The notes under the pieces: generated by a model | What the model saw: the letters and a program-made list of their open reading frames with translations, nothing else | Database searches by the model: none | What the model was told of the DNA's origin: nothing | Program-made: the position numbers and the translations under genes | Origin: Vezdaea acicularis | Taxonomy: Eukaryota | Assembly (NCBI GenBank): GCA_026025075.1 | Contig: JAPEUI010000070.1 | Coordinates: forward strand, 62,001-91,835 | Direction: 5' to 3' | DNA: 29,835 nt | In this document: in pieces, positions 1-29,835 of the stretch | Position numbering within the stretch: the stretch's first letter is position 1 | How the letters are laid out: each line of letters opens with the position of its first letter

Positions 1-1696
1 CTCATCACGAGAGTTTAGAAAAGACTCTATTGCCATCTGGCTCACAATCGTTTGGATCAGGTTGGTGCGATCTAAGCAGTCCAAACAGTTTGTGCGGAAT
101 ACTCCACCCTGTTGCAGTACCACGATAGGTCGTGTTTGCACACTCCTTTCTCCAGCATGAGAAGGAATCTGTTCTTCAATTTCTTCCGACAAATAATATG
201 CGAACCCTTCAGCAGAGCCCCTAATTAAGCGTCTTATTCCGCCTGCAGCCTCATAGCCAGCCGGTCCTCTAGTCTCCGCGTGGAAATCGTACTCTGTTTC
301 TCGCAACTGACTGTGGTCAGACATGGCGCCCTTTTCAGCTCCAATTGAAAGCGGGCTATGACGTATGTGAAATCGATACCGCCTCGTTAGTTCCGCTTCC
401 CCTGGCCTTGATTCACTCAGCAGATTCAGGACATGCGTGGACCCATAGTTGACCTCGAGCCCTTCGAAATGCTTATCGAAAGCTGGCTGGGTGGCTTCTT
501 GTGACCTGGTTATCTGGATCTTTTGCTGCCCAGGAAGGAGGTTGGTAGCCTGCTCCCAAAACACCGGGACGGAGCCTCGTATCTGCACATACGAGAAGCA
601 CAACCCGCCCGGAGTCCAGAAAACCGTCTCAGTTTCCACAAAATTAGCAACGTTTCCATCATCGTCAATGCCTCGAGCATTGAATCGAGTACCAGCACGA
701 CGACATGAGAGCCGCGATATTAGAGTCAGAGTAGAAGGCAAGCCTGACCGCAAAGTCCGAGCAGGGCTTGAGGATTGAGGAATGGTTGAAGTGAGCACGA
801 AACCTCGTATAACAGATGTCAAAATGTAAGAAGAGTCCAGAGCTTCCCGTTCTAGTCCATTCAGACGTGAACGGAACTTCACAAGAGGCTCTATCATATA
901 AGAGTTCCACAAATAGTCATCATCAAGGTTGTCAGCATCGAACGTCGACGAATCTAGTGACCTGTGAGGAAGTTAGCCTTAGTTATCAACTCAAATTGCT
1001 AAGCACGATCATACATACCTTCGCTGTAACCTGTTCGTTATGTCAAAATCGGAACTAAAATAAAAGCTGCCCCCACTAAGAAGCTTTCTTAGGGCAAGGC
1101 AGGGATGCTCAAGGGCCGGGTCACGTAAGTGACCGTCATTCCCGTAATCTGAGCCATCTTGATAGTAGTCATCAGATGAATGGGCATTCAGATCATCGTG
1201 AGCAGAATGATCAAAGTTTTTCCTATTCAAGCAATCTGTATTTTTAAGACAATCAGTATTTAATACGAGCCCCTAAAGCTATGGCAAGGGGCAGGGTTTA
1301 AAAGATGAATTCATTCATACAAAATTCGACGCCATGTATTCTCTTCACAGTTTCTCGTGGCCTGACAGTAGCCACTTGCAAGGCGCCTGTGACCACACAC
1401 AGGAAAACATCGTTTGCTGTAGTGATAAGACCCAGGGTTCCGTGTGCTGGCAACGGTGTCAAGGATCGATAGTCCGTAAGATCGATAGATGAAGATTCCA
1501 AAAACTCGACCATGCACCGGGGGGGGATGGCACCGGTAGGAGGAGGCTGGAATTGTAGCGACTGAAAAGATCCGACAGAGCTGTTTGCAGATAATTCAAT
1601 ACTAGAAGGACTGTAGCGGAAGATCAAGGCATGCGAGTCGGTCACAAGCGCTATAGCCCTATGTGGACTCTCACGAAGAAGAACTCGAACAGACAT
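1..1696 (-). CDS. Synaptojanin-like polyphosphoinositide phosphatase (Sac1 domain; Inp52/Inp53/Syj1 family), 5' part only, runs off the window start. Exons 1696-1321, 1235-1019, 961-<1
   Basis: Spliced translation gives Sac1 motifs GSFYFS, RRAGTRFNARGIDDDGNVANFVETE, QIRGSVPVFWEQ and catalytic FRTNCLDCLDRTN (~60-100). Introns 1320-1236 (GTATGA..TACTGAT..CAG) and 1018-962 (GTATGT..GCTAAC..CAG) keep the frame. Confidence 0.92.
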
Positions 1697-3433: not shown

Positions 3434-6400
3434 CTATGATATCTTACCGCCAAGCCCCGCCACTTCAACAATGACGTTTCCCACTGTGCTCAACGACCAT
3501 AGCCCAATAAGACCCCATCCGATTCTTCGATCCATTTTCCAGCCATTCATTGGGACTACGACAAGAAGTCCCACAAGCGTGACCAGCAAAGTAAAAGCCG
3601 ATATCATTAGAGTGTTGCTGACTTCAATCTCGTACGGCTTATACTTCATCTTCTTATGTGGGTGTGCCTCGTGACGTCGCGTCCCTTCCTTGACCGTCAT
3701 ATAAAGACCACTAAGCCCGATACCCAGTAATATATTCAACATTGGGCCACCAAAGCAGGCGCTGAGGGCCATGACGGGGAAACCCAATCGGGCTACTGTG
3801 ATATCGGCGACCAAGTCTCCGAGGGAATTCCCAACTGCAAAAATGGTGAGGCCAAGTATAGCGTCTGAGATTCCTAGAATGACGCCAAAGGCCTTCAGTA
3901 CGCCGACAACCTCATTCGCGATGGTGCTGATCCAGGCTATACTGACGACGAAGCCGAGGAAACACATCAAGAAACGCCAGCGAGGTGGCTGGGAGGGAGT
4001 CGTGAAGATTAATAGGAGGAGCAGAAGAACGAGGGAAGTGAGTAAGGCATAGAGGGCGGGAAAGAGGAAGGTCCGGGCTTTCATTGGGTCGGGTGTGCTG
4101 TTTGCCCATAGAATGAGCGCAACAAAAAAGGGGGCTGTGACAACCTGTATGCAGACAAGCCAACGATTCCAGTCCTTCCCTGGAGATGGCGGCGATGGTG
4201 TGGATTCGTTCGGTGGGTTCTGCTGCTGGTGCTGGTGGTGTACATGATGCTGGTGATGCAGATGTTGCTGGTGATGCTCGTGCTGCGAGTGAACCGTGTC
4301 TAGAGTCTTCTGATGCTCCATACGCTGTTGGTGTTCCTCAGCTGCTGTTGCCATGGAGGCTGTAGTACCATGACCTGCGAACCCGGCAAGTGGGGACGGT
4401 GGGTCAAGTCTATGATGAAAATGAGAGCCAGGGCTAATATCAGAGAAGTCAAGAGAATGTCTCTGATCGTTCGTCAGCAAGAGCAAAGGGCTATCTGGCG
4501 GCAACAGGGCCGTTGAGGCGCGTCTTGAGCGTGGAACATCGCCTCTAGGCGTATATGTTTGTGATATGGGTGATACATCTTCTTCACTATCCTCCTCTTG
4601 TTCCGATTCAACGACAGGTAGCGTTATGGTCAGCAGGAACACGGCAGGCGCGGCAATGATTCCGAACACCTTCTCGAGTATATTCTTATCCGGTAAGGAA
4701 TATAGAGTTGGGAAGAGTATCGCGGCAAGTACTTCTGGTGCTGGAAGCATAGAATACGGCCACCAAGCTACACGCTTACCCTCAGCAAATTCGTATTCTT
4801 CACTTGCGCGGATAGAATTAGGGGATATGCTTGGAGGCGGTAATCTTATGCTAGGTACAGAAGAGGCCCCGCCCGCAGAGAACGTAGGAGGAGAGTCTAT
4901 GTATCGAGGGAATGGCGAGGCCGGCGAAGAAGCCCCGGAAGTCCTTCGGGACTGGTCGTTTGGAATCAAAAGCTGGGGCACCTGCCTAAATCTTTCTCGC
5001 TCTGCAGCCGTAGATGATTCATGCGATGTATCGACTGGGGGAAAATAGCCGTCTCGTGGAGGAGGAGCAAGAAGGTCTGCCGTTCCTCTCTTCCTTGGTG
5101 GAGCAGGGCTTGGTCTCCTGGAACTGTTGTTGGATTGTGGAGGTGTTACAGAGATATTTGGAGAAGGAAGCGCTGCATCTGGAGAAGATGTTCGCCTCAA
5201 AAACGTAGTGTTTGCCGAAGGAGTAGGAGGTAGCAGGCCGAGTGTAGGTGTTCGAGCTTGCCCAAGGGCATGCGAACTTAGCTCTAAGCCTGCAGCATCG
5301 CTAGCTGAGACTGCTCTGAGTCTATTGTTGGATCCGTTGACGTCTAGGACGGCTTGTGTAGCGTCGACCCTCAGCCCGTCGACGTCAAGCTCTCGCGCAT
5401 CATCATCGAAAGCGAGTTGGTCCTGTGAATCCGTCGCAGCCTGAGAGCCACCGTACATATTCGAGTAATTTGGATCATCTGAGTAGCGACGAACATTCAA
5501 AGGGACAGCCTGAATGTTTCTGGACTTCTGCAGAGAGGAGAGCACCGCGCGAAACTCTAATGCTCCAACCAAGCTAGGTCTGATTGGGTTGCCAGTATGA
5601 CGGCGCTCTCCAAGGCCGCGACGGCTGACTCTCATATTGCTGCTGATGTCCGCAAGCCATCTTTCACGAGCTTCGTCTTCATCGTCCTCATTCATCGGAT
5701 CGCTTTCAGGGCTTCCCGCCCCTACTCCTGTATTGTGCTCTAGCGCACCAAAGTCTTCCATATGCCTGCGTTCAAGGCCGATATGTCTTGCTCCAGCTTC
5801 CCTATCTTCATCATCGTCGTGATACTCTTCCTGTGGTTCTAGCTCTGCGCTCCCAGGCGCATGAAAGTGGCTTCGAGCCGTATTGAGTCTCTCTCGTTGG
5901 CGGCGTCGCCTTCCTAGCCACCAATGCCAGATTACCACGAACACAACGTAGAACAAGTAGAATCCAACCATGGTCGCACATTCCCAGAGATGTAGACTCC
6001 CGTCAGCTAGAAATACCATGCTGAATGATGCCGCGACGATGAAGAAACTGACATCTCGGACGAAGCTCTTCCTTGCTACCTTGAAGGGTCTCACCAAGGC
6101 CATAGAACCAGCGACAACTGCAGTAATGAATCCAGCAGCACCAATAAGCTCCCCCACTGCTAAACTTCCACTATGGGTGCTCATTGCTGCAAAGGTTGAG
6201 AAGACGTCCGGACTTCCGTTGCCGAACGCTAAGAATGTAACACCAGCCATGCTTTCGCTCATTCCGAGTATCGAGGCAATAGTGCTTAAGTTTATACAGA
6301 AGAAGTCACTCGCAGCGATGCCGATGGTAGTGAACAGCATCCCAAGCCACACTACCAATAGTATAAATGCGACGGGCCGTACATTATTTAGTCGGCAGTA

Positions 6401-7256: not shown

Positions 7257-10028
7257 ATGCCTCGCGTTGCAAACCCACCGCGCGCCAATGGCCGAAGCAA
7301 ACACGGAGCCGCGGTGGCGACGCCCTTGGGCAAAACACAATTCAGGTAGGCAGATATACTCCATCTACAAGCCTCATGATCTAAGTTTCCTTTTTTGCAG
7401 TATTCCCTTGAATGATGATGCGCAAGAAAAAGCCGTGCGCCTTCAGTCACGACAAGCTTTGCACGACCTTCAATTGAACCAGCTGAAAGCCGCTGCATCA
7501 CCAATGCGCAGACTCGATAATTATAATCGCGCCGCGAGCAATAGCCCGAAGACTCCTAGAGGTACACATTCTGTGAGGCAGAAGGAAAATGAGAGCGATG
7601 GCCTCCCCGCAGTTGCTGGCAGCATGGTCTCTCCAGTCAAGCGCGTTCCGCTCCTTGCAAACTTCGAGGAGTGGATGAAGATGGCTACTGACAATGTGCG
7701 TACACTGTGTTTTGGAAAGAAGTTTTGTCATTAACCATCAAAAATAGAAAATTAATGCCACAAACTCATGGAACTTCGCATTGATCGACTACTTTCACGA
7801 CATGTCTCTTCTAAAGGAGGGGGATGGTGTGAATTTTCAAAAAGCCAGCTGCACGTTAGACGGCTGCGTCAAGATCTACACAAGTCGTGTTGACAGTGTC
7901 GCGACGGAGACAGGCAAGCTTTTGAGCGGGCTGGCGGATAGCGGGAACAAAAAGAGAAAAGGTGGTGAAGAGGAGGGCGCGGAGGAAGAAGAGGAAGAAG
8001 AGGAAGAAGAGGGCGAAGATGGCGCTAAGAAGAAGACAAGGAAACGAGTAAAACAGCAATGGCTTCTACCTAAAGACGACTACGAGCTAACAGAATTCTA
8101 GACACAAAGATCCTCGGAGGCAACGCTGGCGCCGTCATTTTCTTCTTTACAGCTGAAAAAGTTCGAGCTAGAGTTTTCGGTTGACCCGCTCTTCAAGAAA
8201 GCTTCCGCAGATTTTGATGAGGGCGGAGCAAAGGGACTTCTTTTAAATCACCTTGCAATTGATGGTCAAGGCAGAATTGTCTTCGATAGCAGCGACGATG
8301 CAGGGGATGCTACGAAACAAAACGACTCTCGGAGGCGGAAAAGTGCAGCCCTGGAGGAAATCGAAGAGACCGACGAGGATGATGAAACAAGGCGATCAGA
8401 AGAGCCTGAGGAGCAGGAGCCCGATCCAGAGCAAGATGAAGAGGTCGACGTGTTCACGCTTGGAGCCAAGTACTTTCCCAATCTTGCCCTGCTCGACGAG
8501 CAAGACATATGTCCTTCTCTCAAGAACTTCGATCTTGGCGATATGAATGGCTCCGCCGACATCCCATTCCTAAAGGCCCCGGAAGACTGGAGACAAGAAC
8601 GCCATCAGCAGGATGACCCCATGAATCGCTCTGGAATATTTTTAGACGACGAGAGTCCGGCTGGGTTTGACGATGACGATGGTGCCCTGGGTGGCTTCGA
8701 CCTCCCAGCGGATACTGGGTTTGGCGAGGGTGGTGATGCTTGGGCCCGTGATGCCGCAATAGAACCTCAAATGCGAGTTCAAGGAAGCGGATATGATGAG
8801 GAAAAGGACGGTGAGGAGATGGGTGTTGGGGAGTACGACCCAAATAGCGCTGAATACGGGATTGTCTTACGGCAAGGGCCAGACCGAGAAGGTGGCCACG
8901 AAAATATTCTCAGCTACTTCGATGAAGCTCTAAAGAAACAATGGGCCGGGCCTGAGCATTGGAGAATACGTAAAATTAAAGACAATGCACAGAATGCCAC
9001 GTCCACAACAAGGACTCGCAAAGAGAAAGAGCCGTTCGAAATCGACTTCCTGGCGCCCTTGGATTCGGCCATAGCTGAGGCCATCTGCACGCCGGCATCC
9101 TCTAATTCAGTGATCTCTTTACCAAAAGCTCAATGGAAATCGAAAACGAGGAATCTTCTGCCTGATGACAAGCACTTCAACTCTCGTCAACTACTCAGTC
9201 TCTTTCTCAAGCCCAAGGCTCGGGTAGGATCCCGACAAAGGGCTCTCGGCGAACCTCACTCGATGAAAGGATTATCAAGGGCAGACGCGGAGTTGCCGGA
9301 GGGAGAGATGGACGAGGCATTTTGGGCTCAAAAAGGAGAGCCCATTTCCAACGAGGAGGGTATGGAAGGCAACTATGATGCTAATTTCTTCCAAGATGAC
9401 GGGCTCGCTTTTCCGGGAGGTCTACCTGACGACGACAACGATGACGATTTTGCAGACGCACGAGATCACTTTTCGCCCGGTCTTGAGGGCGCTGAGGACG
9501 GCGCCGGAGGCATGCATGGACTAGCAGAGGCTCTAGCTAGCACTGGCCAAGAAGGCGCATTCGGTTCACAGCTCGTAACTCAATCCAGGAGATTGCGACC
9601 TGAGTACGTTCAGTACGCCCGTGTCGCTAAAAAGGTAGATGTTCGGCGGCTGAAGGAAGAAATGTGGAAAGGCATGGACATTGCAAATTATGAGGCTGAG
9701 GTGAGACCCTTGACATTCAAGGGCTTGGACTATGTTGGAATGATACTGACTGAACACGCAGCAACTGCCGGTCGAATCGCCCTCAGAGCATGCTTCGCCT
9801 GTACTCACGGCCAAAGCTGATCAAAAGCCGTTGAAATTCACCTCTGTGATGAACGACTTGCAAGCAGTCTACCCCAAACAAGCGATGGCGGACATTTCCA
9901 CGTCCTATTGTTTCATTTGCCTCTTACATCTTGCAAACGAAAAAGGGTTGGCCATCGAATCAGAGGAGAGCCTGGTCGAGCTGAATATTCGCAAGGACGC
10001 TTCGGCAGTCATCGAAGGAGAAGCATGA
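7257..10028 (+). CDS. BRN1: Condensin kleisin subunit (Brn1/Cnd2/CAP-H). Exons 7257-7345, 7401-7695, 7748-8047, 8102-9700, 9762-10028
   Basis: NFEEWMKMATDNKINATNSWNFALIDYFHD, NFQKASCTLDGCVKIYTSRVDSV, DPLFKKASADFDEGGAKGLLLN, WAGPEHW, YARVAKKVDVRRLK, FICLLHLANEKGL. Four GT-AG introns of 52-61 nt keep the frame. Confidence 0.95.
7982..8011 (+). repeat. (GAGGAAGAA)x3 coding microsatellite encoding poly-Glu in BRN1
   Basis: Three perfect 9-nt units plus GAG read directly from the sequence. Confidence 0.8.
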
Positions 10029-10680: not shown

Positions 10681-13600
10681 ATGTTTTCAAACTCGAATTC
10701 ATACTTAGGTGGTGGCAACAGCGGACGACCTGGGCCACCTCAGTATGGTCAATCTCAGTATGGAGTGCCACAACAGCCTCAGCAGCAGCAACAAACAAAT
10801 GGATTTGCTCCCCAACAGACTGGCTATGGAGCAGCTCCGCTACAGACGCAGTATACTAGGTTTCCTGTCCAACCACAGCAGACTCTTCAAGCGCCGGCGC
10901 CGCCGCAGCAGCCGCAGGTGACGGGGTTTCTTGCGCCGGGTCAGCAGCAACAGTTCCAGGGCCAGCAGCCTTTACAACAGTATCAGCAAACTGGACAGCA
11001 GGGAGCCCCTCCGCCGACTCCGCTAAAACCGCAGCAGACCTCGTCTCAAATCGCCCAGTCTTTCCAGACAAGTGCTTCCACACCCGCCAGAGAAAGAAAG
11101 GCATCTAAGTCTAGCGCGAAGATTCCCAATATAAGACTATCTTTCATTACGGCTACGGATCAAGCAAAGTTTGAACAACTCTTCAAATCAGCAGTCGGAG
11201 ATGGCTCAGCGCTCTCAGGTAGGGCCCTCGAGAAGCTCCCCTCGACCTGTTCCCTAACGTTCCTATAGGAGATAAAGCACGCGATTTACTGCTACGATCT
11301 AAGCTCCCTGGCGAGTCTCTTTCGCAAATATGGTATGCTTACAGCACTCAATTAGCTATAGTCCTACTCTAACTTGCCCAGGACGCTATCGGATACTACA
11401 AAATCTGGCCAGCTCCTCTTCCCGGAGTTTGCCCTTGCAATGTATCTGTGCAATCTAAGATTGGTTGGCAAGGAGCTGCCAAGTGCCTTACCTGAGCGCG
11501 TCGCAAATGAAGTGTCGAGCATGGTCGATATCATTTCTTTTAATGTCGAAGATCATGCACCGCCACCTCCGCCTCGAAGCAATGCTCCTTCTTTCGACGC
11601 TCCTTTACGGCAGAATACTTTATCACCACCCGCTCCTCAACAGCCTCAGCCCCAACCTCAACAGTACCCAAGTGCCCAATTGCTTTCGCAGCTCTCTGCT
11701 CAGCCTACTGGAGCTTTGAACCAAGCAACAGGCTTTCAACCCCAACCGACAGGCTTTCAACCACAGCCGACAGGCTTCCAACCTCAAGCGACCGGCTTCC
11801 AGCCACAGCAAACTGGATTTCTCCAAGCTAATCCGCAACCAACTGGATACAATGGACCACTTCCTCCAATGCCACCTATGCCGACTGGGATAGGACAAGG
11901 TCTTTCACCTGGAAGTACAGGTGTTGCGCCGCTCAATTCACAACCAACTGGTGTACCAGGGCAGTGGGGACTTGTCAATGCGCCTGCGACTGGGCTACCA
12001 AATATCGACACCTTACATCAGCGTATGATGCCGCAGCCTGGTCGTGAAGGTGCTTTCACAACCGCCGGACTCGCTGGGAATGCCACCATTCCTTGGGCTG
12101 TAACAAAGGACGAGAAGAAGATCTATGACCAACTTTTCAAGGCGTGGGACGGGTTCAACAAGGGATTCATTGGGGGTGATGTCGCTATCGAGGTATTCGG
12201 TCAGAGTGGCTTACCAAAACCGGATCTGGAAAGGATCTGGACTCTAGCCGACGCGGGGAACAAGGGCAGACTGAACATGGACGAGTTTGCTGTGGCCATG
12301 CATCTTATTTATCGCAAGCTCAATGGGTATCCAGTACCCAATCGGCTACCTCCTGAGCTTGTACCTCCTTCGACTAGAAATTTCTCGGAGTCAATCGGCA
12401 CTGTGAAGTCACTACTTCATCAAGACGCAGAGAGTAGGAAGAACTCGGGCGCGACTCTGCTTCCTCAGAGGACTGGGGTTAGCTATCTTAAGAATCACTC
12501 CTTTCGGACAGATTCAGGCGGTGCTGGTCGAAAAGATGCAACAGTTTTCAGGAATAACGATGACGAAGTTGGCTATCGTTCGAGCGCTCGGCGAAGGTTA
12601 GGAGCGGAGGGAGAAAGGCGCTCGCCTTCGCCAGCGCAGCCCGGCTCTCCATCATCTGAGAGGTCCAGTGATGAACTGTCTTTAGAGCAGTTACGGAAAA
12701 AGATTCGCGAGAAACAAGTCCTTCTGGATGCAATTGACTTTAAAGATGAGAATGCTGCAGACGAAGACGACATGCTGGACAGGAGAGACCGACGTGATGC
12801 TGAAGACCTCTACAGGCGGATCCGTCGAATCCAAGAGGACATTGACAGCCACCCAGATGCCTCGCTACGAAGCGTTGACTCTGGAGCGGAACGACGTGCT
12901 CTCCGACGCCAGTTGCAAGCACTTACAGACAAGCTTCCAGACCTTGCCTCCAGAGTCAGACGGACAGAGAGAAGCATAGCAGATGCCAGCCTTGAATTGT
13001 TCCGCTTAAAGGACGCAAAGGCTCATCCGAACAGCGCATCAGCCATAGTTGGCACTGGACCAGGTGGAGTAGTTACAGAATCAGATAGACTCAAGGCTCG
13101 GGCTAAGGCCATGATGCAACAAAGATCTGCAGCTCTGACAGGAAAGCCCATTCCGGCTGCTGATGACTCCTCGGATGCGCCGAGGCGGTTAGAAGAGGAG
13201 AGCTCACGAATCAAGACTGAGAAGGAGAACAATGAACGTATGGTGCAAGACGTCGAGGATAGTGTGCGAGACTTTAGCAGGGGCCTCGAAGATAACCTCA
13301 AAGAGGGTAACGAAGATACTACTTCAGAGCATGAAAAGCGGAGATGGGAAGATGGCCTTGGTGTTGAAGATGAGGTCAAGGACTTCATTTTCGACCTTCA
13401 AAGGAGTAGTAGAGCTACCAGAGTTAGGCGTACAGAGTAAGTTTCCAAGCATGTGATGCCTCTCAAATGTCCTGACAAGATCTACAGTAACGATCGTTCA
13501 AGAGGAGAACGAACAGGAAGGAGTGAAGGACGATATGGAAGTGATGATCGTGACCGAACTCCCACACGATATGATAGCCCGGTCTCAACGAGTGATGCGT

Positions 13601-15208
13601 CTAGCCGTGCCGCTCCAACCCCATCTACAGGCAGCACGGGTTCGTACTCTTCGTACAAAACAGCAGAAGAACGCGCGGCGTTCATCAAGCAGCAAGCAGA
13701 GCAACGCATGGCGGAGAGGCTGGCAGCACTCGGAATTCGCCCAATCAACCAGACTGGCGAAAGCGCAGCACAGCGGCAGGCGCGGGAGAAGAAGGAGCGT
13801 GAGGACAAGCTGCGACAAGCTGAAGAAGAAGACGCTAAGAGGGAACAAGAGCGTCAACGGAGAATCGCTGATGAACAAATTACTCCGCCTGTTGCCGCCA
13901 AGTCATCAGCTAAGAAGCCTCCCCCGCCTCCATCTCGGAAGGTCATAAAATCCGACGAGGACAGTAAACGGAAGCTGGAGGAAGATGCACGCAAGGCTGA
14001 ACAAGAGAGGGCATTAAGAGCGGAACAGGAGGCTCAAGAAGCTAAAAGACGCAGTATGGAGTAAGCTGGCCTATCTTCTTAAATGTTTTCTTTAGAGTAT
14101 GTATGCTAATTCTCGAAACAGAGAAGAGGAACGACGCCAAGAAGAGGAGCTAGTGAAAGAACGCGAAGCGTCCCAAGCTCGCCTTCGTGCTCTAGAAGAA
14201 CAAGTCAAGCAGGGTAAGGTGAAGAAAGAAGAGGAGAAGCGTAGGAGGCAAGCCTCTCAGCGTGAAGCAAAGGAGAAAGAGGCAAGACTTGCTGCTCAAC
14301 GCGCCGAGCTAGAGGCAGCACGAGAGCGTGAAAGGCAATTACAATTGCAACTTGAAGCGCAGGCACAGGAAGAGGACTCCTCAGATGATGAGGGGCCTCA
14401 GCAAATCACTCCTGAAGAGACTCCGACTACCAGCCAGGAGCTTCCGCGAGAACGTGTATCCCCTCCATCTGCGCCGCCCTCTATCCCCTCAATCCAAACG
14501 CCCTCTTCTCAGCCCACGAGTCCCCCACCGAGCGTCATCATCCCAGACACGGAAACCAAGAACCCCTTCCTAAAAATGGTGCAATCAAAAGACACCAAGG
14601 ACGACACCAAAGATCATACTCCCACCGCACCCACCCCTTCCGAAGTCTCCACCAACCCCTTCCACCGCGCCGCCACCAAAGCCGCTGCAGCCCCCAAGTC
14701 CCCTCCCTTAAACCCAATATCCATCAGCACGTCCGATATCCGCTCTCGCCGCACCCGTCCAGAAGAAGACGAATGGTCCGCCGTCGACTCCGACGCCGAC
14801 TCTTCCTCCGACGACGAGAGCTCCCCCCGCGGCGGCCCCAACGCCACACACCTCGCCTCCATCCTCTTCGGCACCATGGGCCCGCCCCGCCCCCTAAGCG
14901 CAATGGACAGCCCCAGGACACCTGAGCCGCACAGCAAGGACACCACCGGTATGGGCATGGCCACGCCCCCGCCCGCACCCCCAATGCCGACGTCTGGAGC
15001 GCCCCCACCAGCCCCGCCACCTCCTCCTCCGCCTTCCATGCCCGGCGCGCCTGGCGCACCGCCACCGCCCCCTCCGCCAATGCCGTCGGGTGGTGGGGCT
15101 CCGCCCGCGGTTGGAGCATTGCTGGGACAGATTGCGCAGGGGAAGAGTCTGAAGAAGGTGGAGACGAAAGATAGGAGTCAGGCTAGTACCGCCGGGAGGG
15201 TATTGTAG
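10681..15208 (+). CDS. PAN1: Endocytic scaffold Pan1 (two EH domains, coiled coil, NPF, acidic-W, poly-Pro, C-terminal WH2). Exons 10681-11218, 11269-11332, 11382-13436, 13488-14060, 14122-15208
   Basis: [27 protein letters not shown] motifs [20 protein letters not shown] and [20 protein letters not shown], QxTG repeats, two NPF, EEDEW, WH2 [21 protein letters not shown]. Four GT-AG introns of 49-61 nt. Confidence 0.95.
11722..11820 (+). repeat. Degenerate 21-nt coding tandem repeat (Q[A/P/Q]TGFQP, about 5 units) in PAN1
   Basis: caagcaacaggctttcaaccc / caaccgacaggctttcaacca / cagccgacaggcttccaacct / caagcgaccggcttccagcca / cagcaaactggattt. Confidence 0.85.
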
Positions 15209-15651: not shown

Positions 15652-16688
15652 CTAATATCCTCCTGCCTCACCACCGTTCCCGGCATCGTTCGCCATCTCC
15701 TGCTTCTTGAGCTCCCATTCGCGCGTGAACTGGGTCCCGAGGGCGCTCAGATCCTGGACGATTTCCCTGCAGGCTTGGGTAAGTGCTTGTTTGGGGGTGA
15801 TGGAGCCGTCGGTCTGGACGCGGAGCTCGAAGGTGGCGGTGAGGGGATGGGGGACTCTGTAGCCGGCGAAAGTGACAACGTCGTTTCGGAGGAGGCGGGC
15901 ACGGAGTAGGTTGCCGAGGGTGTGGTCTTCAGCGTTGAACGTGAACAGGGTAGAATTTGGAATGCCTTTGATGAGATTTTAGTCATGAAAGCGGCAGAGT
16001 CAGGGTTGATGAGAAACATACGAGTATCCGGCTCCTCTGTCACTTTCTTTTGGCCCTCTTGAAGCAAAAAAAGCTCGAACCTATCAGGCGTATTAGTCTC
16101 CATTGAACTCCTTATTGTACCATGAACGTTATAGGCCCGCTCCCGGTACCAGATCCTATCCGGATCGAAGCGGTCCATGTCCGGTCCCAGATGGTTGTAG
16201 TTACGATCGATCATCTCGTCCTCGTTGGTAAAGAGCTCAGATTTCATGTAGGTTGTACGGTCCACATTGTCGTCAATTTTAGCAGGAGAAGGAGACATGC
16301 TGCCTGGAGCGCCTCTCTTGTCGACGGCAGAATCTGTAATAACAGATGGTGACGAGACATCATTTAACGAGACCACATTGCCAGAGGTAGATCCGCCCCA
16401 GGTTGGAGACCCAGGAGGCTCTATAACTGCGTCACCATCACCGGCACCGCCACCCCATGCATCGGAAGTAGGGGAGCCAGCAGTTGTATCTGCCTCGCCA
16501 AGTCCGCCCCAAGTAGGAGATATTGGCAACGGTACAGAGGCGGCGTCCTGCGGAGGAGAAGTTGGATTTGCAGAGTTCTGTTGACTGGGCGAGCTAGATC
16601 CGTGACGCGCCGCGGCGACTTGGCGAAGATGTAAAGGCAGTGAGCCTAGTGGACGGGCACGCTCCGGAGAGTGGGGATCCTGAGGCAT
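15652..16688 (-). CDS. RPB11: RNA polymerase II subunit Rpb11, open reading frame with long N-terminal extension. Exons 16688-16022, 15965-15652 (326 aa if the first ATG is used; canonical core from ATG 16103)
   Basis: NTPDRFELFLLQEGQKKVTEEPDT|RIPNSTLFTFNAEDHTLGNLLRARL...FAGYRVPHPL...LRVQTDGSITPKQAL...FTREWELKK. Intron 16021-15966 (GTATGT..ACTAAA..AAG). Start codon uncertain. Confidence 0.88.
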
Positions 16689-18344: not shown

Positions 18345-20134
18345 ATGGCCACGGGTGCCATGAGCTCCTCTCGAAATTTGGCTTCAAGAGTGAGCAAATC
18401 GATCAAAAGGGTTGCCCCTTCGTTAGACGGCGCCATCAGTTCAAAGCCGAGAGCAGCAAGTCGACCTAGCGACATGCAAGAAGTATCAGAACAACATGAA
18501 AGCGGACCCTCTGGGCTGTAAGCGTATCCAATTATACGGAGATTTTCTTTGAGCTTTCACCTGATTGTCTGTACAGAGATCATAAATGCAGACGCACCCG
18601 CTCGATAGTGTTGAACAATTACACGTGGGAGACCTCCAATGGCATCAATTTTGGTGGCACCAAGTCGTCTAAGGCTTCATACTCGTCATGGACGCAAGAG
18701 ATAGGCAAAAAGCTCGTTTCGTCGGAGATACATGTCACGGAAGTGCTCTCAGGTCTCAAGAGTGCTCCAAGCAAATCAAGCCAAGGAACCAGCATTAATC
18801 AGGAAGCACGAACATCCGAGATCCTTAGTCGTCCGCCAAACTTGCATACGGAAGGCAGTAATGATCAGGGCCTTCACAATGGCCAACAAAAATTTCGCAT
18901 TCCAGAGCAGACCTTACGAAATGCGATGAACACGTCGCCCAATTGTGCTGCTCACTATTGGCAATACAACATGTATGAAGGGCCAAAAGGAGAGAAAGTA
19001 AAGGTGCACTACTGTAAGAGCAAGGAGACATCTGAGCGTGTGGCCCAGTCTTTCCTCAACGAGACTCTTCTTGGCTTCGACATTGAGTGGAAGCCGCAAG
19101 TAACTGCTCAGGAGGGCATCCGAAAAAACGTTTCTCTAGTGCAGTTGGCAGCGGAAGACCGTATCGCATTATTCCACATAGGTGTGTTCGCGAAAGGGGA
19201 CACCATAGAAGAAATTCTAGCCCCATCCCTACGGCGGATCATGGAGACCTCCTCGATCATGAAGGTCGGCGTTTCTGTGAAGGCGGATTGCACCCGTCTT
19301 CGGAGAATCTTGGGAATTGACTCGAAGGGGCTTTTCGAGTTGAGTCACCTGCACAAACTTGTCAAGTACGGGGCGAAAGAGCCGAAAAAGGTCAACAAAC
19401 GCTTGATCTCGCTTGCACAACAAGTAGAAGAGCATTTGCAGCTCCCTCTGTGGAAGGGTGAAGTCCGATCAAGTGATTGGAGTCAGGCGCTGGACAGGCA
19501 GCAAATCAACTATGCAGCATCAGATTCGTATGCGGGCTGGCAGCTTTTCCACGCCCTCGAAGCAAAGCGGCTGGCTATGAACCCATGCCCGCCTCGTCCA
19601 GCACACGCTGAGCTGAACGTGCCAATCCGTTTACCAGATGGTGCACTTATCTGCGATCCTTCACCTGAAGAGCAGGATGAAGAGTTGGCGGAGGATGGCA
19701 ATAGCAGTGAAGGGCCCACGATCGAAAGCATGGCTCGAGACTTCATGCAGATTGCAGATCAAGCGCCTGTGATTCTAGAAGATGAAGCTGCCACCAGAGC
19801 TCCTCGGACTGGCAAAGCGCCCGAGGTGGTCAGAGCCGATGACTGGGTGGAAGCGTGGAAGGCAAGATTGGCGGCGTCACGCAACTGTCAAGCCTCGCCA
19901 GCGTACCTACGAGCATATTCTCTGTGGCATGTACAGGGCTGGACGGTATCGGAGTGTGCGGCTCTTTTGCGCGATCCACCCCTCCAGCATTCGACCGTGA
20001 CGAGCTATATTCTCGAGGCCATAAGGATAGAGAAGCTCGACTATGACCCTCCCCGGCTCAAGGAAGTGGTCAACCAGATACCTGGACACGTGCTGGAGAA
20101 CCGATATAAATATATTAAAAGGCGGTTATCGTGA
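18345..20134 (+). CDS. DEDDy 3'-5' exonuclease, WRN-exo/EXD2-like, with C-terminal helix-turn-helix-like region. Proposed exons 18345-18517, 18577-20134
   Basis: ExoI LGFDIEW, ExoII VKADCTRL, ExoIII YAASDSY and SDWS motif. The long ORF begins with GTG, not ATG. Intron 18518-18576 (GTAAGC..CCTGAT..CAG) joins an ATG-bearing upstream exon in frame. Exact start (18345, 18360 or 18474) uncertain. Confidence 0.82.
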
Positions 20135-21621: not shown

Positions 21622-23331
21622 ATGTCGAAAGCCCAATCGACTGCCTCCGAGGAGTCTTTCGAGTTCATTGAGACTCCACCAGCACCGTCAACTCCGCAAC
21701 AGTACGAGGACTGCGGCGTACGAACGACTCGCGTGAGTGTTTTCTTTCTCCCCTTAGCGGTGCATGTTATTTTCAACTTTACAGCAACTGACGGAGATGT
21801 CATAGTATCCTGCAATTAAGAATGCTCCTCTCCCTGCCGACGCTGCCGGCAGCGATTCCTTCAATAATGCCGTCCTTATTACACTCCTTGCTCTTGTACC
21901 ACTCTGGCTCGCCTGGAAAGTAGGCGGCGGCACTAAAACATGGGTGTTCTTTGCTCTCTTCACCTCAATCCCCATTCTGATGGTCTTCTGGACTGTCGCG
22001 TCTAGTCTATCCCCGCGTAAAAATGAAAAGGTTAAATATCCTGGGAAAGGGGTTGAGCATTATTTGCACTTCAAATCAGAGGGGGACAGGCTGAAGTATA
22101 AGGGTAAAAGCAAGATCCCTATGGAGACGTTCCATGAGATGTACTTCGATGGCAAAGTGGACTTCAAAGGTGACGCTCTAGAAGTAATGGAGTATCGTCA
22201 CGATTGGGCAAGCTTTAGGTTCACCCTAAGCCTTTACTGGTTCTTCTTAACTGGCATGATGCCCGAAGTGATTATGCATACTCGTTCTCAGGGTTCGTTT
22301 GTCCTGCTGTCCAATTCAAGGCCATAATCTGACAAATTCCAGATGAGGAGCAAGTTCGTGACCATTATGACCGAGGCGACGACTTCTACAGCTGGTTCCT
22401 TGGCCCACGCATGATCTACACCAGTGGCATTATTAGCGACATCAACACTGAGGAAAGTCTTGAGCAGCTTCAGGATAATAAAGTTTCCATTGTCTGTGAA
22501 AAGATTGGGCTCAAAGCAGGCGAGAAGCTCCTCGATATTGGTTGTGGCTGGGGAACACTCGCCAAGTTTGCCTCCGTCAATTATGGCGCTCATGCTACTG
22601 GCATCACCTTGGGTCGAAATCAGACCGCATGGGGGAACAACGGTCTTCGCAAAGCAGGCATACCAGAAGAACAAAGCAAGATTTTGTGCATGGACTATCG
22701 TGATATTCCGATTCCAGAGGGCGGCTACAACAAAATCACATGCTTGGAAATGGCCGAACATGTTGGCGTACGGCACTTCTCTACCTTCCTGAAACAAGTC
22801 CACGACATGATGGATGATGACGGTGTATTTTTTCTCCAATATGCCGGCATCCGAAAGTCTTGGCAGTACGAAGACCTCATCTGGGGTCTATTCATGAACA
22901 GATACATATTCCCTGGTGCTGACGCATCAACGCCGTTAGGCTGGGTCGTGGATAAGCTAGAGGGCGCTGGTTTTGAGGTCAAACAAATCGACACCATGGG
23001 CGTGCACTACAGCGCCACACTTTGGAGATGGTATAGGAATTGGATGGGCAACAGGGACAAAGTCGAGGCCAAGTATGGGGCTCGATGGTTCCGCGTAAGC
23101 CATTTAACCCTGGATATGTGATACTTTGTTACTAACAGTTACTGACAGATCTGGGAATACTTTCTCGCCTACTCGACGATCATCGTCCGCCAGGGCTCTG
23201 CGGCTTGTTATCAACTCACCATGGTCAAGAACTTGAACTCGACTCATCGTGTCGAAGGCATCCCCACCCAGTTCAGTCTCAGCGGCGCCCTCCAAAGCGG
23301 GAAAGCTACTATTGCCAGGGGCAAGAAATGA
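21622..23331 (+). CDS. Sphingolipid (glucosylceramide) C9-methyltransferase, CFA-synthase family. Exons 21622-21732, 21806-22292, 22343-23094, 23149-23331
   Basis: YPAIKNAPLPAD, two N-terminal TM segments, HTRSQDEEQVRDHYDRGDDFYSWFLGPRMIYTSG, SAM motif LLDIGCGWGTL, YIFPGADAS, HYSATLWRW. Three GT-AG introns. Confidence 0.92.
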
Positions 23332-24140: not shown

Positions 24141-25385
24141 CTATTGAGCTGTCCCTGGCCGGTAACCATTTGTCCCGGGCCTCACGCTGTCCTCGAACAG
24201 GTCTTCGAGGTAGGTACTAGGAGCGCGTCCGGCCGGCGGTTGGTTGAGGTTGAGACTGCTCATGCTTCCATTCCGTACTCCTCCGACCACACCTCCCACT
24301 GTGCCTCTGCTAGGCGGCAAGCTCGGGCTCACGGGTGGACTTGGTGCCGCGCCTGATGTTGCGCGTGAGTAGCCGTGTGCTTGCGGTCCGCCACCCATTC
24401 TGCTCAGCGCGGCTGCAGGTGACGAGCCAATGTGTGTCATGCCGGCACCGTTGCCAGGCGCGGACGCCCCGCTGGGATAGTAGCCAGAGGGGTGATAGCC
24501 AGATCCGCGGTTACCTGGAGTCGTGAGCCCACCTGCGGCTGCGGTGGGTGAGAAGAAGAGTGAGCTGTTTGGAGTGTGCCCTTTGGGACCGACTGTGCTG
24601 TTCCGGGCACCTGATCCTAGGTGGTCGAGAGAGAGGGTTGAGCCTACTGTTGCGGAGTAGAAGCCGGGTTTGGTGCTGGCGGTACCACCGGTGAAGAGGT
24701 GCTTGCTGTCTGTCACGTTCTGGTGCAGCGCAGCGCGCTTCACGGAGCGTCGTAATGACCACATGACCAGACCACGCCAGGCGAGTACTGCGAGCCCAAG
24801 CGCACCAAGACAAGCCCCTACAGCGATGAAGACTGTACCTTCGGGAACTGAGGACTTTCGCATGTAGGGTGCATTTGCGGTTGGTGGGACTGTGGGAGGG
24901 GGGTAGGAAAAGGCGCCGCTGATCTTAGGGAGACTGCCGGTAATGCCGCCATCATCGGTAGCGGCAGCGCTGCTGGCCGAGATAGAAACTGTAGTAGGAA
25001 TTGAGGAAACCCCCGTCGCAGTACTCCCGGTTGCGGTCACGGAAAAGGTCGTCGTTCCGGTGGAAGAGGAGGCCGCTGTACTCTTGCTATCTTTGGCGGA
25101 AGAGCTGCCGGAGCTGCCGGTGGTCGTTGCAGAGTTTGTAGTAGCAGTGCTCTGTGATCCAGACTTCGAAGAGGCAGTAGTCTGTGATTCAGAGTTCGAA
25201 GAAGATGCAGAATCAGAGCCAGTAGTAGAGGTAGGCTTGTCGGTACCGGGCAAGGCATTATTCGTCGATGCCGAAGTGCCAAGCGTTGGGAGGTCATCGG
25301 CGCGGACGTATGTAGCGAAGAGGCTGATGAGACAGAACAATGCGACGAGGCTCAAGGCGCTCGGTGAGCGTATTCGTAACCGCAT
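24141..25385 (-). CDS. Single-pass membrane glycoprotein, Csi2/Prm5-like (signal peptide, Ser/Thr-rich ectodomain, TM, cytoplasmic tail)
   Basis: Intronless 414-aa ORF with hydrophobic leader, S/T-rich tract, PTVPPTANAPYM...PEGTVFIAVG before the TM segment, C-terminal RAPSTYLEDLF. Confidence 0.78.
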   Translation of the reverse strand: MRLRIRSPSALSLVALFCLISLFATYVRADDLPTLGTSASTNNALPGTDKPTSTTGSDSASSSNSESQTTASSKSGSQSTATTNSATTTGSSGSSSAKDSKSTAASSSTGTTTFSVTATGSTATGVSSIPTTVSISASSAAATDDGGITGSLPKISGAFSYPPPTVPPTANAPYMRKSSVPEGTVFIAVGACLGALGLAVLAWRGLVMWSLRRSVKRAALHQNVTDSKHLFTGGTASTKPGFYSATVGSTLSLDHLGSGARNSTVGPKGHTPNSSLFFSPTAAAGGLTTPGNRGSGYHPSGYYPSGASAPGNGAGMTHIGSSPAAALSRMGGGPQAHGYSRATSGAAPSPPVSPSLPPSRGTVGGVVGGVRNGSMSSLNLNQPPAGRAPSTYLEDLFEDSVRPGTNGYRPGTAQ

Positions 25386-27605: not shown

Positions 27606-27631
27606 TTATTAGTTTATAGTTTATTATAATT
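27606..27631 (+). promoter_or_regulatory. AT-rich TATA-like region upstream of U6
   Basis: ttattagtttatagtttattataatt lies ~10-35 nt upstream of the U6 5' hairpin, as expected for a TFIIIB site. Confidence 0.55.
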
Positions 27632-27665
27632 GCGTATGTGTTGCCTTCGGGCATTTTGGTCAATT

Positions 27666-27718
27666 GTGAGTTCCTCGAGCTTTCCCATACCTAAAGTACT
27701 CGCTAATATTTCTGGCAG
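27666..27718 (+). other. 53-nt spliceosomal (GT-AG) intron within U6 snRNA
   Basis: Donor GTGAGT, branch GCTAAT (27702-27707), acceptor CAG. Removal restores contiguous U6 sequence. Confidence 0.92.
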
Positions 27719-27791
27719 TGAAACGATACAGAGAAGATTAGCATGGCCCCTGCACTAAGGATGACACGCTCAATCAAAGAGAAGCTACCAA

Positions 27792-27798
27792 TTTTTTT
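27792..27798 (+). terminator. Pol III oligo(dT) terminator of U6
   Basis: Run of 7 T directly after the U6 3' sequence. Confidence 0.85.
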
Positions 27799-27884: not shown

Positions 27885-27894
27885 GGGTTCGAAC
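27885..27894. promoter_or_regulatory. Putative downstream (extragenic) B box for U6
   Basis: GGGTTCGAAC (minus strand GTTCGAACCC) matches the TFIIIC B-box core GTTCRANNC, ~90 nt after the terminator. Confidence 0.6.
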
Positions 27895-28097: not shown

Positions 28098-29835
28098 ATG
28101 TCGAAAAGTGCATTCAAACGCGCCAGTGTGACTGGAGGGCGGCAGCGAACAGACGTATTGGCTTCCCTGCACAATGCTCAATTAGTTGAGTCGAAGCCAG
28201 TATTACCAGCAGGTGGGAGCGTTGTTCATGTACCCTAGTACTGGTTCTAACGGCTATAGAGATCATCTCGACAATTCTCGATTATCTTGCAGTACCAGAC
28301 CTCATCCACTTTGCTCGAGTCTCCAAGCGCATGCAGGAGATGGTATATGATGATACGAGATGGGTCCAAAGATTGAAGGCTATGGGTTGCTGGGACGAGA
28401 GGGAGGCGAAGCAGAGATTCGAGGATGCGATGCGGAAGCAGTGGGAAGGTCGGAAAGGCAAAGAGCAGGACCCGACTAAAAAGGGGGGAGGAAGTGCTGT
28501 CAAGAGATCTGTTCCAGGAGGTGAGAAAGCGGATGGCACGATCTTTGATTCCGATTTGGAGGCAACAAAGCAGCAAGTGCCAATAGAAGAGGCCCCGCGA
28601 CTACGTCCAGGAAGCTTAGTTGACGGCTTCGATACTCTGGCTGTCTCTGCTCATATAAACACACTGGGCGCAAACGTCTCTGGCCGTGTAGAGACTGGAG
28701 ACGCGGCACTGCTGCATATACTGACTGCTGTTCGATCTATACGCGGTGCGGCGCGACAGGAGTACGGAAAGGTCTATAGTGGTTTGTCGCCTTACTACTT
28801 TAATATCTCTATGAGGGGAACAAGGACAGATGCCAAGGTGTTTCGAGATTTTAAAGACCCAGAACAACAGTCTCAAATGCTTTCTCAGCTAAAACATTTT
28901 GCAAAAAGTGACTTTGCGCATGGAAATAGTGCCCGAGAGGAGTCACTTGACACCCTGATTACTACCTTCGAAGTTGCAGTACTAAGAGAATTTGAACAGT
29001 GAGAATCAGTCTCCTCAGATCCGTGAAAAAGCTGACCAGAGAAAGGGCTTTGTACGCTGCTGATGTTTCGGGTAACATGAAAAAGTATGCCTGCGTCCTA
29101 GTCACGCTCAACGGGGGACAAGCTGGTGTGGATCACTTCATACGGCAAAACCCCCTTTTCTCAGAGAAGCAAAAGTTTGGTAATCCTATGGACTGCCTGG
29201 AGTAAGTGGAAAGCCTACATTTCTAGATTCTAGACTTCGGATCTAAAGTGAGTTTAGGTACGCATTCTCGGGCAGCATAACACTAGGCCCATCCAGTGAT
29301 TTCTTCAAGAGACTATCCATCGAAACGAATCAACAGGCGGCTATCATTGATCAGGTATTCCCGAGCTCGGTGGACGTTCTGTATCACCTCTTAGAACGAG
29401 TCAGTGAAATCATCGTCTCAGCTTACATTACACCGCTCCTGGACGAAACGCACGGGAGGAGTATAGATGCATACCTTAAAGCTGTTGCCGGCCTATATGA
29501 CCAGAGCATGCAATTCTCTCAGTCTCTGAAGCCGACAATAGGTTCGGCCGAGACTTTTCGGCAAGATGTTGACGAACTCTTCGCAAAAGTATTCGAGCCA
29601 CATGTGGATCTCTACCTTCAAGAGGAACTACGCAATTTTACTCGTCTGTCTGGTGATGAAGTCAACAATTGGGAGAAGAAGCTTACAGACGAATACGCTT
29701 CCACAGAGTCATACTTCATGGCCAATGTCAACAGAGTTGCTGATAAGCGAGACTTCCTCTCTTCATTCAAGAAGGTAGTCATGATGCCAGTTAACGTCGT
29801 AGCTATGCCTTTTACCGCGAGCAAGCCCGTCGCAC
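28098..29835 (+). CDS. RCY1: Recyclin Rcy1/Pof6-like F-box protein with Sec10-like domain, 3' truncated. Exons 28098-28212, 28260-28998, 29046-29201, 29258->29835
   Basis: F-box LPAEIISTILDYLAVPDLIHFARVSKRMQEMVYDD, VRSIRGAARQEYGKVY, FKDPEQQSQML, FEPHVDLYLQEE, ADKRDFLSSFKKVVMMPVNV. Introns 28213-28259, 28999-29045, 29202-29257. Confidence 0.9.

Follow-up and report, generated by a model that had tools for sequence, protein, structure and literature searches.

The window, a stretch of 29,835 nucleotides, contains a U6 snRNA gene that is divided into two exons by a 53-nt intron with the signals of mRNA (spliceosomal) introns, and removal of this intron in silico restores U6 exactly. The initial annotation had claimed that an intron of mRNA type interrupts the gene 9 nt upstream of the ACAGAGA box, and both the reading of the sequence and a profile test bear this out; the coordinates given for it, its length and its distance from the box were all correct (Table 1). 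The locus is very probably a working RNA polymerase III (Pol III) gene of a member of the Pezizomycotina, with a precursor of ~158 nt that would be spliced to a U6 RNA of ~105 nt.

Table 1. Positions in the window of the split U6 gene, its signals and flanking elements, and of the intron candidates that join open reading frames (ORFs)
Feature	Position	Strand	Basis or remark
TATA-like AT-rich stretch, TTTATAG then TATTATAA	27613..27629	+	Found by eye; putative function
U6 exon 1, 26 nt	27640..27665	+	Profile positions 5-28 of intronless relatives; predicted 5' end, approximate
Intron, mRNA-type (spliceosomal), 53 nt	27666..27718	+	Sequence; colinear U6 once removed
5' splice site GTGAGT	27666-27671	+	Sequence
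Branch site GCTAAT	27702-27707	+	Branch A at 27706, 12 nt from intron end
3' splice site CAG	27716-27718	+	Sequence
U6 exon 2, 80 nt	27719..27798	+	Rfam RF00026, 75.7 bits; nhmmer, 89.6 bits, profile positions 28-106
ACAGAGA box	27728-27734	+	9 nt past 3' splice site; aligns to Rfam consensus
AGC triad	27740-27742	+	Aligns to Rfam consensus
Seven-T run, candidate Pol III terminator/U6 3' U-tract	27792..27798	+	Sequence
B-block-like motif (putative TFIIIC-binding) GGTTCGAA	27886..27893	+	87 nt past terminator
ORF-bridging intron candidate	962-1018	-	57 nt
ORF-bridging intron candidate	13437-13487	+	51 nt
ORF-bridging intron candidate	14061-14121	+	61 nt; also has GCTAAT
ORF-bridging intron candidate	18518-18576	+	59 nt
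ORF-bridging intron candidate	22598-22663	-	66 nt
ORF-bridging intron candidate	23095-23148	+	54 nt

The Rfam family U6 (RF00026) matches the genomic sequence at 27687-27796 with a score of 75.7 bits (E value of 1e-17, gathering score of 44) and is the sole Rfam family above threshold in the window. Most of this score derives from exon 2. The alignment spans all 105 model positions, with the 5' stem placed on intron sequence, and four of the pairs in this 5-bp stem are flagged as non-standard. The match is convincing only from TGAAAC on, the conserved stretch that precedes TGAAAC is unmatched, and exon 1 is missed. The initial annotation had warned that the split might mislead annotation pipelines, and this is what happens: the "full-length" cmscan match begins inside the intron, which sets the 5' end of the gene 47 nt too far downstream and hides the intron. 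Exon 1 searched alone (27620-27680) has no Rfam match at E values of up to 10, because its 26 nt are too short.

Spliced and unspliced sequences, whose comparison had been proposed as a check, were searched with a DNA profile built from 25 uninterrupted ascomycete-type metagenome loci representing 21 distinct intronless U6 sequences. With the intron removed, there is one colinear match to positions 4-105 of the 106 in the profile, scoring 113.1 bits, and only without the 53 nt does the match run from end to end. Genomic DNA gives two matches, one of 89.6 bits to profile positions 28-106 and one of 3.7 bits to positions 5-28, which meet at profile position 28, exactly the proposed junction, and joining exon 1 adds 23.5 bits. 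Exon 1 is the next-best profile match after exon 2 on both strands of the whole window, and it is colinear with exon 2, on the same strand and 53 nt upstream. Its support comes from this position and colinearity, since the exon 1 match is not significant by itself (E value of 0.9). On this sequence evidence, the division of the U6 gene by an intron is judged to be real.

As read from the sequence, exon 1 contains the 5' stem-loop and, behind it, the beginning of the conserved GGTCAATT stretch. The stem-loop (UGCC/UUCG/GGCA, 27642-27653) has a 4-bp stem and a UUCG loop in the minimum-energy fold. Exon 2 opens with TGAAACGAT and also contains the internal stem-loop region and the 3' tail, and a T-run matching the one at its end is found 3' of the gene in related metagenome loci. 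The longest T-run within the intron is three, in agreement with the earlier claim that runs of four or more are absent from it. In exon 1, four consecutive T occur at 27654-27657, a run that the initial annotation does not mention; none of the 21 relatives used for the profile exceeds three at this place. Pol III might pause weakly there, or the longer run might be a length variant without effect.

The intron had also been described as similar to the protein-gene introns of the window. A loose splice-signal motif shows no enrichment, with 23 matches in the window versus 24.4 +/- 5.2 in shuffled sequences, and the motif alone is therefore no evidence. Intron candidates were kept only if they join long open frames, which holds for six sites predicted from gene models. 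Five of these have their branch A at a distance of 11-13 nt from the 3' end, and two of the six have alternative 3' ends. With its length of 53 nt and branch A at 12 nt, the U6 insert resembles these candidates of 51-66 nt, as had been claimed. The search for a donor intron, also suggested in the initial annotation, was unsuccessful: BLAST of the 53 nt against the window and 121 metagenome loci found no donor-like sequence, only chance matches of ≤14 nt.

The TATA-like stretch is located 27 to 11 nt upstream of the predicted start, and related metagenome U6 loci have TATATA-type motifs at a similar upstream distance. On the 3' side, the B-block-like motif GGTTCGAA occurs once in the 29,835-base window, where 0.85 occurrences are expected (whole window, both strands). 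The full B-box consensus, GGTTCGAANNC, has no match in the window, and it was the 8-nt core that gave the site. A tRNA scan of the window found no genes, and the motif is thus outside any tRNA gene. The downstream motif is conserved: among the matches listed, G[TA]TCGA is present within 200 nt downstream of 15 of 32 distinct ascomycete-type loci (the window included), versus 3 of 57 loci of the other type. The 53-nt intron itself contains neither G[TA]TCGA nor a B-block-like motif. A B-block motif past the terminator, and perhaps the TATA-like element upstream, are shared with SNR6 of Saccharomyces cerevisiae, which has a TATA box, an A block within the gene and a B block downstream and, unlike the present gene, is intronless according to the passages on it. 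The intron of the window is inserted where we take the A block of SNR6 to lie.

Other features of the locus indicate that the gene is intact. Almost all aligned positions of exon 2 agree with the profile consensus of the intronless relatives, and the portion of exon 2 that lies 3' of the core used for the metagenome search is identical in two metagenome loci (L032 and L045), which argues that the gene is not decaying. The locus is intergenic: on one side, a multi-exon gene has its last long open frame up to 27022, and on the other, a Sec10-like gene begins near 28190-28331. Judged by these features, the gene looks functional. Just upstream of the Sec10-like ORF, a 223-amino-acid (aa) ORF (28331-29002, + strand) may be the first exon of the Sec10-like gene. 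This ORF has no Pfam family at an E value of ≤0.001, and the same is true of those at 24141-25385 (- strand, 414 aa) and 15747-16688 (- strand, 313 aa).

For two neighboring protein genes, the named relatives that match best are lichen-associated and related Pezizomycotina. For the sodium/calcium exchanger, these are Candelina (class Candelariomycetes), Candelaria, Pycnora, Pleopsidium, and Lasallia (56-59% identity), and for condensin subunit 2 they are Pleopsidium, Trizodia, Candelina, Thelocarpon, Piccolia, Pycnora, and Candelaria (63-68% identity). The two genes are adjacent in the window (3434-6358, - strand, and 8450-9820, + strand, respectively). The best matches of the pair have consecutive locus tags in the Pleopsidium, Pycnora, Candelaria, and Sarea assemblies, and the pair is therefore syntenic across distant Pezizomycotina. 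All seven sequencing runs listed for the window are of DNA, and the best four are moss metagenomes from a single study; the host lineage is a moss-associated ascomycete without a close relative among sequenced genomes.

Public metagenomes were searched with a 31-nt core copied from exon 2, giving at least 121 loci with at least 123 core matches. An uninterrupted core was required, and introns within the ACAGAGA-ISL region are excluded from this sample by design. The 123 core matches listed comprise 73 of a TTGGAAC type, 37 of the ascomycete GAAAC type, 11 that are cut off 5' and two others. Among the 37 GAAAC-type loci listed, 29 are uninterrupted in the region (including L001, whose intron is 11 nt further upstream), one is aberrant (L038_1), and seven carry a canonical intron of 49-58 nt within the same 4 nt as the intron of the window. 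Relative to the latter, the insertion site is 1 nt upstream in L025 and L111, 1 nt downstream in L045, L059, and L117, and 2 nt downstream in L071 and L085. The exact site of the window is occupied in none of the 37 ascomycete-type loci among the matches listed, and the sequence of its intron is not significantly similar to those of the seven neighboring-site introns (z scores of -1.39 to 2.45). The four adjacent insertion positions across loci mark a narrow hot spot just 5' of the ACAGAGA box, and such a hot spot fits the reverse-splicing model of intron gain.

Several of the metagenome loci have features of their own. The U6 intron of L111 holds a B-block-like GAGTTCGAAT, as described for Schizosaccharomyces pombe, and a second motif, GCGTTCGAACCC, is found 71 nt past the terminator of the same locus. 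L059 has two U6 introns, one at CAATTT|GAAAC and one flanked by GGAT and GACAC in the 3' half. In L027, the 5' part of a second U6 core copy (L027_1) is replaced by GC-rich sequence, and in L038 one copy (L038_1) is divergent before TGAAAC and stands in tandem with another copy; these aberrant copies are possibly pseudogenes or variant copies. In TTGGAAC-type loci, a conserved ACCCGC...CAAAAT-like block ~55-85 nt upstream takes the place of the TATA box, and the downstream B-block motif is as rare as the above count among the matches listed indicates (3 of 57), which suggests a different Pol III promoter layout for this type.

Introns are a known feature of fungal U6 genes. According to the passages of PMC5855946 (Didychuk et al. 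2018), they are frequent, with clusters close to the catalytic core and directly 5' of the ACAGA box; Canzler et al. 2016, as reported there, found many unrelated U6 introns with canonical signals in 145 fungal genomes, with up to four per gene, and experimental validation is described as still lacking. Passages of further papers also state that introns are often present in fungal U6 genes. The introns of Canzler, Stadler & Hertel 2016 (RNA Biol 13:119), a catalogue known here through passages that cite it, share with the present one the canonical signals, an otherwise unconserved sequence and a fungal host, and the hot spot "upstream of the ACAGA box" named there includes the present site.

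A close parallel is provided by S. pombe (Tani & Ohshima 1989; Potashkin & Frendewey 1989), which has a single U6 gene with an intron beside the AGC triad that the spliceosome excises, as summarized in the passages of PMC5855946. In the passages describing it, the S. pombe gene is, like the present one, a Pol III gene with one intron of ~50 nt and canonical signals, and its precursor needs the spliceosome. Covariance-model searches mishandle both genes; the intron is reported to have caused Infernal to miss U6 in S. pombe. The two differ in the position of the intron, which adjoins the AGC triad in S. pombe and lies 5' of the ACAGAGA box here, and in that of the B block, which is inside the intron in S. 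pombe, as far as it is described in those passages, and 3' of the gene here. An S. pombe-type U6 intron is ruled out for the window by the insertion 9 nt 5' of ACAGAGA, by the lack of G[TA]TCGA in the intron and by the location of the B block at 27886-27893.

The seven metagenome loci combine an ascomycete-type U6 with a canonical intron of 49-58 nt in the same 4-nt stretch, but at sites displaced by -1, +1, or +2 nt, and their intron sequences are not significantly similar to that of the window. A literature search found no listing of U6 intron positions in Pezizomycotina, with Canzler 2016 represented by citing passages, and the passages of PMC2396436, PMC8283771, and PMC10170752 give no U6 intron positions. 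The novelty that the initial annotation had claimed for insertion site and lineage is weak, given that fungal U6 introns are widespread, that a hot spot at this place is named in the passages on the catalogue and that seven loci have introns 1-2 nt away. The exact site (CAATT|TGAAAC), at about U37/U38 in S. cerevisiae numbering, and the lineage may be unrecorded, which would be a small increment.

For the preferred reading, a mechanism can be proposed from known U6 genes. Pol III would act on a promoter of the yeast SNR6 type, with the upstream TATA-like element, the downstream B block and a presumed intragenic A block, and would produce a precursor of ~158 nt that extends from ~27640 to the seven-T run. 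This precursor would contain the 53-nt intron with the pre-mRNA signals GUGAGU, GCUAAU, and CAG, 9 nt 5' of the ACAGAGA box. The spliceosome would then excise the intron to give a mature U6 of ~105 nt, as shown experimentally in Schizosaccharomyces pombe. Gain of the intron by reverse splicing is the standard model for introns of this class and may apply here.

A gene without an intron would provide another account of the Rfam result. The RNA would start inside the 53-nt stretch and extend over 27687-27796 with a divergent 5' stem-loop, and exon 1 would be a chance resemblance, as might be argued from a cmscan match that reaches model positions 1-105 without exon 1, from the window-wide E value of 0.9 for exon 1 alone and from its lack of an Rfam match. 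However, this account has to accept the four flagged non-standard pairs in the 5-bp stem and the unmatched stretch before TGAAAC, whereas exon 1, on the same strand, fills in precisely those profile positions that are missing (5-28), is separated from exon 2 by a GT..AG-bounded insert and contributes the additional 23.5 bits. The same split layout also recurs 1-2 nt away in the seven other loci, and an intronless gene is most improbable. It is unlikely, to a lesser degree, that the split gene is a silent or redundant copy, a pseudogene or minor paralogue in a genome that obtains its functional U6 from an intronless gene at another locus. Fungal genomes average 2.3 U6 copies, with a maximum of 20, and species may mix intron-bearing and intronless copies, as stated in the passages of PMC5855946; the aberrant second copies in the metagenome loci (L027_1 and L038_1) point in the same direction. 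Nevertheless, the mature sequence of the present gene is intact and near the profile consensus of its relatives, and it is accompanied by canonical splice signals, an intact terminator and a B block at a conserved distance downstream, all of which would hardly persist in a dead copy.

A working gene could also owe its intron to regulation, if splicing of pre-U6 were rate-limiting and provided feedback on spliceosome activity (autoregulation), rather than the intron being a neutral insertion that is constitutively removed. The case for this is one of logic, in that the U6 product builds the machine that matures it, and splicing has been raised as a possible control of U6 levels in the passages of PMC5855946. 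The sequence contains no pointer to regulation, however: the splice signals are near consensus, no donor-like or conserved intron sequence is present, and the neighboring-site introns of other loci are unrelated to that of the window (z scores of 2.45 or less). Near-consensus signals, unrelated neighboring introns and the lack of conserved intron sequence fit neutral insertions, and a regulatory role for the intron appears improbable.

With the split gene, fungal U6 introns, a phenomenon already known, gain one further member and possibly a new insertion site. A stronger version, in which this is the sole U6 gene and the site CAATT|TGAAAC is uncatalogued, is conceivable but rather doubtful. 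Every U6 molecule would then be spliced by the spliceosome that it builds, as in fission yeast. If this is true, the gene of the window and the seven other loci would testify to no fewer than four independent insertions in a 4-nt stretch of U6, and such a cluster would be a footprint left by reverse splicing on the part of U6 beside the 5'-splice-site helix.
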